The translations under genes and the position numbers were made by a program. A stretch of 64,000 nucleotides of DNA from contig OX597830.1 in assembly GCA_951406725.2 (NCBI GenBank), positions 50,468,001-50,532,000 on the forward strand, in the 5' to 3' direction. The notes below the pieces were generated by a model. It was not told where the DNA came from. It did no database searches and worked only from the letters and a program-made list of their open reading frames with translations. Source of the stretch: Octopus vulgaris (lineage: Eukaryota). Shown here one piece after another: positions 497-63,692 of the stretch. The stretch's first letter is position 1; each line of letters opens with the position of its first letter.

Positions 497-1056
497 ACGT
501 CTCTAAGTAGATTTTTTCTCGCCCCTTATAAAACATCCAATATTCTTTAAATAGTCAGAACTTTATTCTCGGTCACAAAGAACATCTACGCACCCTCACC
601 CACATGATTGACCGATGCTTGACCCGTTGAATTCTTCAGCCACCGGTTCTCAACATACACTGATAAACAGTTTCGCCATGGGCTCTTAGGAGCATAGTTC
701 GATTTGTTTTTGCTCCGCCTCTGTTCTGTTTTTGTTTTTCCAACGGATTTCCTATTTTCTTCCTGAAGAGAAAGACACAATATGGTCCCATTATTCCATC
801 GGATTTTGGTAATTTGTGCCTTTCGAAACACGTGTAGAATGAAATAAAACGATTTCTGTTCAATCTGCGTTCAGCTCCATTTCTTCAATTCACCAATAAT
901 GTTCTAATTTCAATTATCCGCACCAACGCACGGTTGCAACACCATATGGTTGTACCTCCAACCGTGCTGTTTTACTGCTGTGATTTTTGCTACTAAGGTA
1001 TCGGTTAAACTTTTGATTAATCTACTACAAGATTATTCATCTTTCTATTTCACATA
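497..1056 (+). mobile_element. PLE pseudo-LTR-like 3' terminus, inverted relative to the PLE body at 1-330, ending in (TA)n
   Basis: Contains a hammerhead at 753-846. Its tail (TTTGCTACTAAGGTATCGGTTAA...AAGATTATTCAT) is homologous to 60650-60715. Faint GIY-YIG C-terminal traces (TSLSRF, APYK, LN.SEL) near 498-575. Confidence 0.6.
753..846 (+). ncRNA. Type I hammerhead ribozyme with canonical core, predicted cleavage after GUA at 836
   Basis: Stem I TATTTTCTTC/GAATGAAATA (9/10 pairs); CTGAAGA 763-769; stem II GAAAGACACAA/TTGTGCCTTTC; GAAA 825-828; palindromic stem III ACACGTGT. Confidence 0.8.
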
Positions 1057-1101
1057 ATATATATATATATATATATATATATATATGTATATATAAAGGA
1101 T

Positions 1102-1648
1102 AAAGACCCCCTTCAGTCATGAATGACCATGGGATTGCACCTAGAAAGTTACCCTCCTAGACACAAGTCCGGGCAAGGTTGTTTATGGAAGACCAGCAGT
1201 TGCCCATGCATACCAGCCTCCCTCTCCACGCCACCAGTGTTATCCAAGAGAAAGACAAAGGTCGATACAGCTTGGCACCAGTGACGTCGCAACTCATTTC
1301 TACAGTTGAGTGAACTGGAGCAACGTGAAATAAAGTGCCTTGCTCAAGAACACAACACGCAGCCCGGTCCGGAAAGACCCCCTTCGGTCATTAATGACCA
1401 TGGGATTGCACCTAGAAAGTTACCCTCCTAGACACAAGTCCGGGCAAGGTTGTTTATGGAAGACCAGCAGTCGCCCATGCATACCAGCCTCCCTCCCCAC
1501 GCCACCAGTGTTATCCAAGAGAAAGACAAAGGTCGATACAGCTTGGCACCAGTGACGTCGCAACTCATTTCTACAGCTGAGTGAACTGGAGCAACGTGAA
1601 ATAAAGTGCCTTGCTCAAGAACACAACACGCAGCCCGATCCGGGATTC
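1102..1648 (-). mobile_element. SINE family C, two tandem ~271-bp units, 5'-truncated
   Basis: 1102-1372 and 1373-1648 are near-identical direct repeats; reverse complement matches the tRNA-headed copy at 4026-4283. Confidence 0.8.
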
Positions 1649-1696
1649 ATATATATATATATATATATATATGTATGTATGTATGTATATATAAAA

Positions 1697-1925
1697 GGCG
1701 GCGAGCTGGCAGACACGTTAGAACACCGGGCGAAATGCTTAGCGGTATTTCGTCTGTCGTTACGTTCTGAGTTCACATTCCGCCGAGGTTGACTTTGCCT
1801 TTCATCCTTTCGGAGTCGATAAATAAAGTACCAGTTTCGCACTGAAGGCGATGTAATCGACTTAGTCCCTTTGTCTGTCCTTGTTTGTTCCCTCTATGTT
1901 TAGCCCATTGTGAGCAATAAAGAAA
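1697..1925 (+). mobile_element. tRNA-derived SINE family A, full length
   Basis: Head GGCGGCGAGCTGGCAGA, B-box-like GAGTTCACATTCC, core CTTTGCCTTTCATCCTTTCGG.GTCGATAAA..AGTACCAG, tail AATAAAGAAA; many copies in window. Confidence 0.9.
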
Positions 1926-1990
1926 AAAAAAATATATATGTATATATATATATATATATATATATATATATATATATATATATATATATA

Positions 1991-2195
1991 GTTAATCCAA
2001 ACAAGAAAACGCAAAAAACACAACAACGCGAGGACGTAGAACAAATATAGTATTATTGGACGCTCAGGAAAGAAGGAAAGAAGGAGGGTTTAACGATTCG
2101 AGCGGAGCTCTTCGTCGGAAACATATGAGAAGGAAAGCTCCAGAGAAGGGAAGACAGAGGAAAAAAATCGCCAACGGTACACACGAGGTCACATT
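1991..2195 (-). mobile_element. ~205-bp HHR-bearing element in (TA)n, copy 1 (degenerate minimal HHR at 2088-2122)
   Basis: Same termini (GTTAATCCAAAC...GGTCACATT) as 22263-22473; minus strand GTTT-CCGACGA-A-GAGC-TCC-GCTC-GAAT-CGTT-AAAC (GAAA mutated to GAAT). Confidence 0.65.
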
Positions 2196-60425: not shown

Positions 60426-60524
60426 TTCCTTGTTTTTCCTGATGAGAAGGCGGCATAATGCACCCTTTATTCCTTCGAAATTAAGAATTTGCAACCTTCG
60501 AAACATATGTCGAGAATAAAGGAA
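60426..60524 (+). ncRNA. Type I hammerhead ribozyme with canonical core, predicted cleavage after GUC at 60511
   Basis: Stem I TTCCTTGTTTTTC/GAGAATAAAGGAA (11/13 pairs); CTGATGA 60439-60445; stem II GAAGG/CCTTC; GAAA 60500-60503; palindromic stem III ACATATGT. Confidence 0.85.
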
Positions 60525-61719
60525 TTTCGTTAATTCGTCGTTCAACTCCATTCTTTCATTTATTTGTATAAAAAAACACACAAATTTCCACACGAAAGCA
60601 CGTGATCTCTGCCCTTGGCATGTAGCTTCAACCGTATTTTTCTGACGTGAATTTGCTACCCAGGTATCGGTTAACCGAATTATCCATAATAAGATAATTC
60701 ATTCAACTACTCAAATATTTATATATATATATATATATATATATATATATATATATATATATGTACACTTATATTTACACAAACAGATGTACTTATATAT
60801 ACATACATATACATATACACAAATATGTATGTGTATATATATGTATATATATATATATATATATATATATATATATATACATATATATATATATATACAT
60901 ATATATATATATATATATATATATATATATATATATATATATATATATATTATTTTGTCTGAGAGAGTCATTTTCTTTTAGTGCCTTATTACTTAACACA
61001 CACACACACACACACGCCCACATACTTTATTATCAAAGCTGCAAAAACATCAAAAAGTTATCACAAAAATCGGAGTTGAATAAAAAATCAGTTATAAAAT
61101 TAAATCTAAAGTACTAAAAACGCTAATATGAGTAAAGTTTTACATGGAATAAGGCAAAACCGAGTTCGGCGAAATTTGAATCAGAACTTAGCTACATCTC
61201 TAACCGCTTTGTCCTGTTCGCTAAGGTTCTCTGAGCATCGCTGCCGTATGAACAATAACGATAATAAAAATGATAAATAAATGGGATAATAGTAAAATAA
61301 TTAAGTAATCGAAATAAAAAGATAAAATAAAACAAGAAAAAATAACTAAAAAATATATAACAAAAAAAAAAAACGATTCGGATATTAGATATCTTTAATA
61401 CACATTTTGGTCGATGGTAGAAGCTCTCTTTAATGTGTGCATTAAAAATCAATGTTCAAAGGTTTTATGGGCGAAGTTACGATGTAAAAATACTTTCATT
61501 TTGTTTATAAAATGTGTGTTTAAGAGTAAAATTTACATTAATATAATGAATATGAACATAAAAATATAAAGGTAAATAGTTTGTATCCGGTCGAAGGTTT
61601 TCTCGGAAGGTGAAAATGTAAAATGAATGTTATACAAAGTGGTGCCGGTTTAAAATGACAACAAAAAAAAAAAACAACCTGAAATTGCGAAATCAATGTT
61701 ACCCCTATGGTATTTTTCG

Positions 61720-62398
61720 CTCGATATTTTATAATTCCCGGCGAGTCCGCAGGAATTTAAAAGTTCTAACCTTCGGTCCAGAGCGTATTTATCCTGGAAA
61801 AGAATGACAATTTTTCAGTCAGGTACAAATTTGACCTCATTGGGCTTCTATGCACTCCATGTTTATATGGTGCTGCATTCTTCAAGATTTCTCAGTAGAT
61901 TTTGGAAGGACGTGTATCAGATTCTTTCAACTGCCAGACATGCTTGGCGAGATCCGTTGCTGTCCTATTTTCATAGTATCGAAATCAATTTCAATGAGAA
62001 TACAGCTTTGTCTCGAAGAAATTTTTCGTGGCCCTTGTATATGTTTTGTATGTTTGTGAGCCATCGTTTTGCACCTTAGCTGTATATACTATTCCTTTCT
62101 CTAGACAATTTCATCCCAGTGGACAACAGCTATGGTCTTTACAATTACAATTTTTCTTCTTAATTCCGGCACTGTAGTTATTTCTAATAGTTTTCGCAGA
62201 GGGCTGGTTAATTAAAGAAGTGAAGTTCTTGCAACAAGAACAGCTAATCTTCAGCGTTCTCCTATTAAAAATTCTATGGAACTTATGATCTACTTGAAAG
62301 TGCTTAGAAACTAGTTTCAAGAATTCCCTACCAATATTAGTTTTTACGGCTATGTTAAATGTCGGATTGAACCACATGTATTTATCATGTTGAGTCAA
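61720..62398 (-). pseudogene. Penelope-like retroelement C-terminal GIY-YIG endonuclease region, decayed
   Basis: WFNPTFNIAVKTNIGREFLKLVSKHF...IFNRRTLKISCSC...CNCKDHSCCPLG*NCLEKGIVYTAKV...ATDLAKHVWQLK...AAPYK...LTEK/...LDRRLELLNSC, with stops and a frameshift. Confidence 0.88.
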
Positions 62399-62573
62399 AT
62401 GTTATTTGGATTTCCACCGATGATCTTTGACAACTTGTATCTTTATGTTATATAATTAAGTTGATACATCGTGTTGAATGAATATTTTATTATTTAATTC
62501 CAGATACAACACATAAACTTAACCTAAACGTTAATTGTTTATACTTTATTTTGTAGCTTTGATAATCAGTAAA

Positions 62574-63181
62574 ATGACCAATTTTACGCTACTTGTGGGA
62601 GAAAAGACTAAGTGCAAGGACAGCAGCAAGAGAAATTAATGATGTGGAATTCCCAGGAACTTTCAACGAATGTGTGGCACAAACATGGTTGAGACCTATC
62701 AAGGAAGGTGACGCCAGACTTGGTGACAAACCAGGGTTAGGGAGACCTCGCGTTAGGGAAGATGACGCTTTGGTCGAACTACAGTCAAGCACTAGCATTC
62801 ATACATTATCAGCAGAACTTGGTCCATCTCAAAGCACCATCAGTCGGCACCTCCATAAGCTTGGCCTTCTGAACAGATGCTGTTGCGAAGTTCTTCATGA
62901 ACTAGCCAATGACCAAGCTCAATGACGTGGGATTTTTTGCAAACAACATCGTGGCATTCTTTGTTGGCATATGAAGCTTCACCGTTTCTACAGTCCAGAC
63001 GTTGCACCATCAGATTACCAACTTTTCCGAATCATGACTCCTTTCTTGGAAGGACTTAGGATCAACAATGAGGATAAGATTGAAAGCGTGTGCCTGGAGC
63101 CTAATGATATAAGAGTGGAATTGAACTTCTGACACACAGATGGCAACAATAGAATATGATGGGATATAATTTAATGAATAA
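62574..63181 (+). pseudogene. Mariner transposase pseudogene with large internal deletion
   Basis: HTH region (TAAREIN, DKPGLGRP, LSAELG.SQSTISRHLHKLG), EVLHEL (WVPHEL motif), YSPDVAPSDYQLF from 62989, and GIELLTHRWQ near the end. Confidence 0.9.
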
Positions 63182-63589
63182 ATGATTTGGCTGTCTGGTA
63201 TACCTTTACCCTATGTGTTCAAACATACATACATACGTACATCAAGACATATATAAGTGTGTGTATATATATATTAGTATATATACATATATATCTGTAT
63301 ATATATGTTTGTATGTATATATATATATATATATATATATATATATGTATATATATATATATATGATATAATATATATTACACATAATATAGTGAAAGAA
63401 GTTAGGGTAACTTTCAACCGTTTCTTCTTCAAGCACATGACGATGTTCCTTATTACAATTCAGTACGTAGTCTCAGTTGTTGCTGTATGTTAGTCAACAT
63501 ACATATTGAAATTGAGACGTATGGAAATATGATTTGCTGATTTATTTTATAACAAAACAGGAAAATGGGATGTTCTTTGATATTATTTA

Positions 63590-63692
63590 TTCTTCATTAC
63601 ATATGTTTCGTTTGCTAATAGGAAGTACAAAGTTTTATCTGTTCGATAGATATATAAGGAATTTCCTATTAGAAGTCCTTCAGGCAGAAAAG
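63590..63692 (-). ncRNA. Type I hammerhead relic
   Basis: Minus strand CTGAAGGA...CTAATAGGAA/TTCCTATTAG stem...GAAACATATGTA; core and stem I degenerate. Confidence 0.45.

Follow-up and report, generated by a model that had tools for sequence, protein, structure and literature searches.

Type I hammerhead ribozymes, which have the core CUGANGA...GAAA...UH and helices I-III with helix I open, occur in several kinds of animal retroelement, amongst them the Penelope-like elements (PLEs) and the retrozymes. According to the parts of Craig et al. (2021, PMC8557442, with Files S1 and S2) available to us, PLEs of the Hydra clade prefer (TA)n tracts, carry the hammerhead mostly 100-200 nt from the 3' end, often with a helix III of the form ACTC-N-GAGT, and are defined by the protein motifs DKT, RWK and CxCX5C, a C-terminal endonuclease, which lacks the CCHH motif, following the CxCX5C linker. 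The same source describes PLE insertions as heavily 5'-truncated, frequently accompanied by an inverted truncated copy and bearing a tail of 30-40 nt at one end; it gives Penelope-13_HM as an inverted copy with hammerheads on both strands and already lists an octopus element, Hydra-1_Obim of Octopus bimaculoides, with a hammerhead and a (TA)n preference. Here we describe a set of hammerhead motifs in 64,000 nucleotides of Octopus vulgaris DNA (contig OX597830.1 of assembly GCA_951406725.2, positions 50,468,001 to 50,532,000), a stretch referred to below as the window, and ask how they relate to these elements.

Three further bodies of work bear on the comparison. In the consulted sections of PMC11167929, reverse transcription of an anole PLE in vitro begins at two internal sites, which accounts for the tail, and insertion did not need hammerhead cleavage. 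The minimal hammerheads of metazoan PLEs, as portrayed in the excerpts used of Cervera and de la Pena (2014, PMC4209133), are mostly single, probably truncated pieces belonging to many families per genome, with low cleavage in vitro, and opposite-strand pairs lie 100-700 bp apart. Non-long-terminal-repeat (non-LTR) retrozymes are presented in the accessible text of PMC7229834 and of bioRxiv 10.64898/2026.07.22.740005 as head-to-tail tandem units with a hammerhead in each, expressed as circles. For cephalopods, the part seen of a giant squid paper counts 235 Hammerhead_1 matches, the word 'ribozyme' occurs nowhere in the O. vulgaris repeat paper, and beyond Craig et al. we found no literature account of octopus hammerhead families in a search that excluded Repbase, Dfam and several supplements that may list cephalopod motifs.

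Hammerhead motifs of five lineages

The window holds eleven hammerhead sites or relics at nine loci. A sequence-only reading had proposed ten motifs or relics; all ten are present, in differing states, and a further one at 49260 on the minus strand had been overlooked. The units are as follows.

345..1057 (+): unit of family A in opposite orientation to the neighbouring open reading frame (ORF) remnant, ending on (TA)n at 1057; putative left boundary
753..846 (+): type I hammerhead of family A; CUGAAGA, 8-nt palindromic helix III, GUA site, short helix I; passes the full descriptor
1991..2200 (-): unit of family C flanked by (TA)n tracts; its minimal hammerhead, 2088-2122, is broken by a change at A15.1
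21211..21296 (+): family D relic of a hammerhead; change at A6, U.U at the helix II base, (TA)n 130 nt downstream
22058..22216 (unstranded): family B inverted pair of 3' hammerhead halves only, flanked by (TA)n tracts and with ends of unequal length, one short and the other long
22263..22475 (-): unit of family C; hammerhead 22365-22399 of minimal build with U4C core, unpaired A before helix II and palindromic ACGU helix III
38286..38572 (unstranded): family B head-to-head pair between (TA)n tracts; arms identical at 98 of 111 positions, short and long 3' ends
38323-38383 (-): family B hammerhead, helix III pair lost (broken)
38407-38467 (+): family B hammerhead, relic with one extra C preceding GAAA
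49178..49290 (-): distant family B unit; hammerhead 49205-49265 with U4C core, helix III ACUC-U-GAGU, (TA)n 33 nt downstream
52608..52818 (+): family E unit; 211-nt fold-back around the decayed hammerhead 52686-52766, no adjoining downstream (TA)n
60229..60714 (unstranded): family A head-to-head pair between (TA)n tracts; arms identical at 173 of 173 positions, plus arm with a further tail of ~145 nt
60271-60369 (-): intact family A hammerhead; passes the full descriptor
60426-60524 (+): intact family A hammerhead; passes the full descriptor, GUC site at 60511
63365..63692 (-): distant family A unit; relic hammerhead 63590-63692 with A9 changed and helix I poorly paired, (TA)n 235 nt downstream

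The full type I descriptor comprises the core, helix II, GAAA, helix III, UH and helix I, and is passed by five sites, three with a canonical core (763+, 60356- and 60439+) and two with a U4C core (22395- and 49260-); this corresponds to about 80 descriptor-passing motifs per Mb in a window that was chosen for its motifs (5 in 64 kb). By stringency, there are two strict matches, four when the U4C core and an unpaired A are allowed, and five in a loose form accepting three-pair stems. In sixty block-wise (local) dinucleotide shuffles the respective means were 0, 0 and 0.05 and the observed count was never reached, so that the comparison with shuffled sequence which the sequence-only reading had called for, run here on the window, places the motifs above background. 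A relic descriptor designed after the sites had been seen (core with at most one mismatch, helix I of at least 4 pairs, palindromic helix III, helix II ignored) adds 21216+, 38412+ and 52690+, with a mean of 0.02 in 200 shuffles, while invariant or paired positions are hit in the three broken sites 2088-, 38323- and 63590-. An extra match at 56737 appears at a very loose setting only, is at chance level and was left uncounted. Palindromic N4 was found in six of the eight GAAAC-N4-GTH words against 0.35 expected, a number attained in none of 200 shuffles; as the 5' core plays no part in this test, the excess provides an independent check.

Rfam gave no match at gathering level over the whole window, and the list by E-value, dominated by microsatellite matches to microRNA models, has no hammerhead among 150 of its 345 rows. 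The best score for Hammerhead_1 (RF00163) is 22.7 bits against a gathering threshold of 34 (E 0.0015 on a 161-nt stretch); the segment concerned, 60433-60517, covers the whole model including all core positions and falls below gathering because of its long helix II insert. The site at 49260 was not matched to any hammerhead family in Rfam. Pattern scans of public collections returned five metagenome loci, without hammerhead context or similarity, and two bacterial loci, all of them chance matches, and nothing in two further scans.

Pairwise alignment assigns the sites to five lineages, in agreement with the earlier estimate of at least five families. Lineage A consists of 753, the pair 60271/60426 and the distant 63590; the 345-1057 unit aligns with 60398-60714 over the hammerhead and the entire 3' tail (z 31), and the 63590 unit aligns with the 60426 copy at z 7. 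Lineage B comprises 38323/38407, the half-copies at 22058-22216 and the distant 49260, lineage C comprises 2088 and 22365, and D (21211) and E (52686) are single copies. Cores of the U4C type occur in families B (49260), C and E.

Family A could be followed beyond the window. Contigs of runs from nine studies and four organisms contain the 317-nt plus arm of the 60.2-kb pair, no run being recorded as RNA and X11 and X16 being RNA at most by conjecture, and at 80% likeness four of the runs yield 2,098, 2,900, 248 and 120 matching contigs, the first two being DNA runs. These are contig counts only, summed contig depth not being taken as copy number; with thousands of contigs, they bear out the large population that had been proposed. 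Among the 39 variable places listed for the 317 positions, none falls on the 21 places of the core, 10.1/11.1 and helix III (p 0.03-0.06). Stem covariation across copies, the lack of which would by the sequence-only reading have told against its proposal, is present both in the family A contigs and between subfamilies of A and B: helix II shows a two-sided change from G-C to A-U at 60450/60495 and helix I one from U-A to C-G at 60434/60516, changes at 60489 and 60494 in nearly all other copies restore helix II pairs missing in the window copy, helix III of the family A subfamilies swaps on both sides (ACGU/AUAU), and so does helix I of the family B subfamilies (GAUAA-UUAUC/AAUAG-CUAUU). In most copies of family A, helix II has about 12 pairs.

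Insertion anatomy and Hydra-type protein remnants

As had been noted, most of the units lie in or near (TA)n. At eight of the nine loci a (TA)n tract starts at most 250 nt downstream of the cut site, as against 22% of random positions (binomial p ~4e-5, the 250-nt threshold having been picked after the data were seen), and only two of the nine have one within 250 nt upstream, which makes the link directional. Head-to-head inverted pairs with unequal ends occur at three loci (22058, 38286 and 60229), the longer arm exceeding the other by 55-145 nt, and except at 60229 the arms have diverged. In the contigs, the junction of family A with (TA)n falls at two positions, 60570 (37 contigs in run X1, 5 in X16) and 60711 (22 in X1, 3 in X16), which correspond to the short and the long end seen in the window. 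Joints between opposite strands, four in number, were found at differing places, and 124 and 116 contigs extend over an end of the family A stretch. No head-to-tail joint is among the joints listed for the contigs of the four runs, which is weak evidence because contigs show presence, not absence. Within the window, same-strand motifs lie at least 3.3 kb apart, and no long-unit tandem covers a motif in 150 of the 201 tandem-repeat rows. The two family C copies (1991-2200 and 22263-22475) coincide in their start base and in their end base. At 22058-22473, one (TA)n tract is common to a family C unit and the inverted pair of family B, which are stacked insertions of different families.

Three remnants of PLE proteins lie in the same window.

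3..299 (-): thumb remnant of a Hydra-type PLE reverse transcriptase, cut off by the left window end
34870..35250 (-): third Hydra-type thumb remnant, strongly decayed
61793..62443 (-): Hydra-clade PLE remnant with thumb, CxCX5C linker and decayed endonuclease

Two of these had been recognized before, at 1-330 and 61720-62398, and both prove real; the third is an addition. The 3-299 remnant has 66% identity to Octopus sinensis P0002 and 31% to the full-length P0060 (E 2.5e-8), and the stretch 1-345 scores 76 against a shuffle maximum of 19 with P0002 excluded from the profile. For the 34870-35250 remnant, a hidden Markov model gives 12.8 bits against a reversed-control maximum of 6.3, and the stretch 34300-35570 reaches a frameshift-tolerant score of 42 against a shuffle maximum of 22, again with P0002 excluded. 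Whereas these two span the thumb only, the remnant at 61793-62443 extends further and shares 45% identity over 217 aa with P0003, a 713-aa protein (E 3e-52). One relative of this remnant comes from Argonauta, and its relatives of at least 600 aa carry the Hydra-clade motifs DKT (10 of 10), CxCX5C (10 of 10) and RWK (8 of 10). P0002, which bears the source name 'myb-like protein I', is a Hydra-type PLE thumb fragment and likely misannotated; a longer relative of it was looked for and none was found. In the 3' region of the 61.8-kb remnant, at about 61145-61235 on the minus strand, there is a by-eye likeness to the hammerhead region of Hydra-1_Obim; it passes no descriptor and was not counted.

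The tie between hammerhead and ORF rests on type and neighbourhood, not on continuity. The A753 unit adjoins the remnant 3-299 solely in inverted orientation, and a Pfam scan found no domain match in or upstream of the hammerhead units. As Pfam misses Hydra-type PLE proteins, full-length ones included, its blanks upstream of the units carry little weight, and a purpose-built profile is the better test. The stretch 345-755, which by eye resembled an endonuclease C-terminus, was rejected, its profile score of 15.3 lying below the shuffle maximum of 18.5. The purpose-built profile ties no unit directly to an ORF, and the lack of a coding remnant in sense beside any hammerhead leaves room for non-autonomous units.

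Set beside the Hydra clade as far as PMC8557442 was available, the window families agree in lying on (TA)n with a type I hammerhead near the 3' end, in a palindromic helix III of the form AC...GU (ACTC-N-GAGT in family B), often with helix II carrying one additional base on either side of its foot, and in the DKT, RWK and CxCX5C motifs of the relatives of the protein remnants; the U.U at the helix II base of family D resembles Hydra-clade motifs in a by-eye comparison with File S2. The inverted 5'-truncated pairs with hammerheads on both strands recall Penelope-13_HM. Family A differs from the clade, so far as it is described there, in a much longer helix II and its 8-nt palindrome, as do the tails of 60-145 nt, and the U4C cores of B (49260), C and E, together with the absence of a full ORF from the window, set these sequences apart from published Hydra elements. 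Family C has the minimal build described in PMC4209133 (short helix I, unpaired base before G10.1, palindromic 15.2-16.2); unlike the cases in the available sections of that paper, its parent is not in the window, and octopus is not among the species named there. With the non-LTR retrozymes of PMC7229834, as covered by the accessible text, the units share being short, coding-free type I hammerhead sequences of low G+C, related to PLE pseudo-LTRs and occurring in a mollusc (mussel). By coding-free we mean that neither Pfam nor the Hydra profile gave a match within the units or upstream of them. Two or more consecutive head-to-tail hammerhead units were not found in the 64-kb window; unlike the retrozymes described, the units occur singly or head-to-head and end on (TA)n.

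Origin of the units

The motifs are genuine hammerheads of type I or relics of these. Had they arisen by chance in DNA rich in AT and in repeats, or through misassembly as the perfect 173-nt inversion might suggest, one would expect the lack of a gathering-level match in Rfam, and the relaxed descriptors shaped after the sites seen and the 100% identical arms at 60229 could be read in the same way. Such an origin is, however, hardly credible as an account of the whole set, given that the strict descriptor is met in none of the 60 shuffles, that the palindrome excess is independent of the core, that the other inverted pairs have diverged arms and that family A recurs across studies and organisms. 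Chance is already refuted for the five passing sites; taken individually, the relics 21211, 52686 and 63590 could be chance.

We consider it probable that the motifs mark the 3' ends, that is, the pseudo-LTR region, of PLEs, mainly of the (TA)n-targeting Hydra type, left severely 5'-truncated and 5'-inverted. Following published PLE biology, the element's endonuclease would nick a (TA)n tract, reverse transcription would set out from either of two sites a short way 3' of the hammerhead, giving short and long ('tail') ends, and copying would usually halt within a few hundred bases, with an inverted second copy often added. Because copying would start just 3' of the hammerhead and stop early, the hammerhead would be copied most often and the ORF rarely reached; each family would presumably descend from an ORF-bearing element. 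The dependence on PLEs put forward by the sequence-only reading finds support in the fixed 3' ends on (TA)n, the inverted copies, the short and long ends, the Hydra-type helix III and the protein remnants. A number of observations weigh against an origin as truncated PLE ends. The nearest downstream (TA)n tract to family E (52686), the exception amongst the nine loci, is 5.2 kb away; tail lengths of about 60 and 145 nt exceed the published ones; and random truncation would not predict the common 5' start of the family C copies (n=2). The endonuclease part of the purpose-built Hydra profile detects no sense remnant upstream of the hammerhead in any of six units tested, and in the ~790 nt 3' of the 61793-62443 remnant, up to the (TA)n at 60950, no motif passes the descriptors. 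Within the covariation, a helix II variant at 60449 has no partner change, 60434 varies much more often than its partner in run X2, and the two-sided changes are seen across contigs and not linked within single copies. None of the short words taken from the five families occurs in the accessible part of the Craig et al. supplement (PMC8557442), so that identity with a published element at the family level is unsupported.

Some of these points would be expected if certain families, C above all and perhaps A and E, were discrete non-autonomous elements that borrow Hydra-type or other PLE enzymes, in the manner of short interspersed nuclear elements (SINEs), and enter (TA)n singly or as inverted pairs. 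The identical start and end bases of both family C copies, the lack of a coding remnant upstream in all six units tested, the high abundance and kept structure of family A and the folding of family E as a 211-nt rod, better on the hammerhead strand, speak for it. Variable truncation, on the other hand, fits the varied opposite-strand joints and the contigs that run past the 5' end of family A (124 and 116 over an end), A753 lies inverted beside an ORF remnant as in PLE insertions, and the excess of G.U over A.C mismatches in family E is equalled by a plain inverted pair (see below); we give discrete elements a modest chance. A descent of the units, as solo copies, from true non-LTR retrozymes with tandem master arrays at other genomic sites, expressed as circular RNAs, is very improbable. 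The hammerhead of family A does have a canonical, retrozyme-like build (internal loop and distal stem in helix I, helix III readable as 2 pairs and a 4-nt loop), retrozyme families can, by the available text of bioRxiv 10.64898/2026.07.22.740005, hold any share of monomers, and PMC7229834, as far as consulted, places retrozymes in mussels; but the window has no tandem unit, at each terminus of family A the loose ends with most support are (TA)n, no go-back joint is among those listed (contigs cannot prove absence), and tailed inverted pairs are a signature of PLE insertion in the seen part of PMC8557442. The spacing of same-strand motifs and the lack of tandem units and listed head-to-tail joints likewise leave the description of these sequences as retrozyme-like, made in the sequence-only reading, without backing.

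Predicted folding, sequence context and implications

Pairing of helix III in the monomer is predicted to be low (probability at most 0.14 where computed), and with palindromic helices III most motifs are predicted to cut well only as dimers; PLE hammerheads reportedly do cleave as dimers. Within the two inverted pairs that were folded, the hammerhead helices have a predicted pairing probability of 0. On either strand of a head-to-head pair the antisense arm would be transcribed first, so that the ribozyme would be captured on emerging. Most copies are therefore likely silent, the head-to-head pairs burying the ribozyme in a long hairpin in these models. No support was obtained for the suggestion that active copies cut a host pre-mRNA: the helices are predicted to be unpaired in the folded pairs, and a scan of 150 of the 200 stop-free frames (at least 48 codons) met only transposon domains and detected no host exon, a result still compatible with an intron.

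The family E unit (52608-52818) is predicted to form a rod of -83.2 kcal/mol (z -8.8) on the hammerhead strand, compared with -71.7 on the other strand; rod and hammerhead fold are mutually exclusive (constrained fold -57). This 211-nt fold-back may be an old inverted pair, a miniature inverted-repeat element or a rod-like RNA. Its G.U excess (6 against 1 A.C) was considered as a mark of selection at the RNA level and rejected, the plain inverted family B pair at 38 kb giving 7 against 2. On the plus strand, G.U thus exceeds A.C in 38286-38512 as well as in 52608-52818, unlike in 9068-9372, a diverged 305-nt fold-back that adjoins a (TA)n tract, is without a hammerhead and has 9 G.U against 8 A.C mismatches; the excess may reflect strand-biased mutation or plus-strand transcription.

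The window as a whole has a G+C content of 35%, about 25% of it is simple repeats and a further 19% consists of repeats recurring inside it. Tc1/mariner-type transposon remnants lie at 6418-7986 (inverted ends 6418-6611/7793-7986, with DDE and HTH matches) and at 62578-63130, where a second HTH-bearing piece starts at 62578, and the 3' remnant of a long interspersed nuclear element with a zf-RVT domain lies at 32157-32699 (+). A repeat of about 230 nt, in more than ten partly tandem copies (1694-1922, 2655-2900, 29384-29999, 57005-57421 and others), is one that we take to resemble octopus SINEs. Beside the 49260 hammerhead unit, 49500-49630 (+) presumably resembles a Helentron-associated (HINE/DINE-like) 3' end.

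PLE ends that carry hammerheads and lie in (TA)n have been published before, octopus included, and the window would be an ordinary product of this known class, whereas the five families themselves are apparently new members and add to the catalogue. The presence of five lineages within 64 kb, and of thousands of distinct contigs for one family, suggests that existing counts of cephalopod hammerheads are far too low. A broader picture, which we regard as rather unlikely, is that octopus genomes hold one of the densest animal hammerhead populations, of the order of 100,000 motifs genome-wide if the window were typical, missed by Rfam and spread largely by discrete, non-tandem, non-autonomous parasites of PLEs, with family E as a possible genomic copy of a viroid-like circle and the head-to-head pairs serving both to switch the ribozyme off and to supply long double-stranded RNA. 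With its young intact copy, its numerous natural variants and its pair of defined 3' ends, family A offers a test set for the role of the hammerhead in PLEs and for the origin of their tails. Should families C or E be discrete non-autonomous elements, they would represent a dispersed, non-tandem counterpart of the retrozymes.

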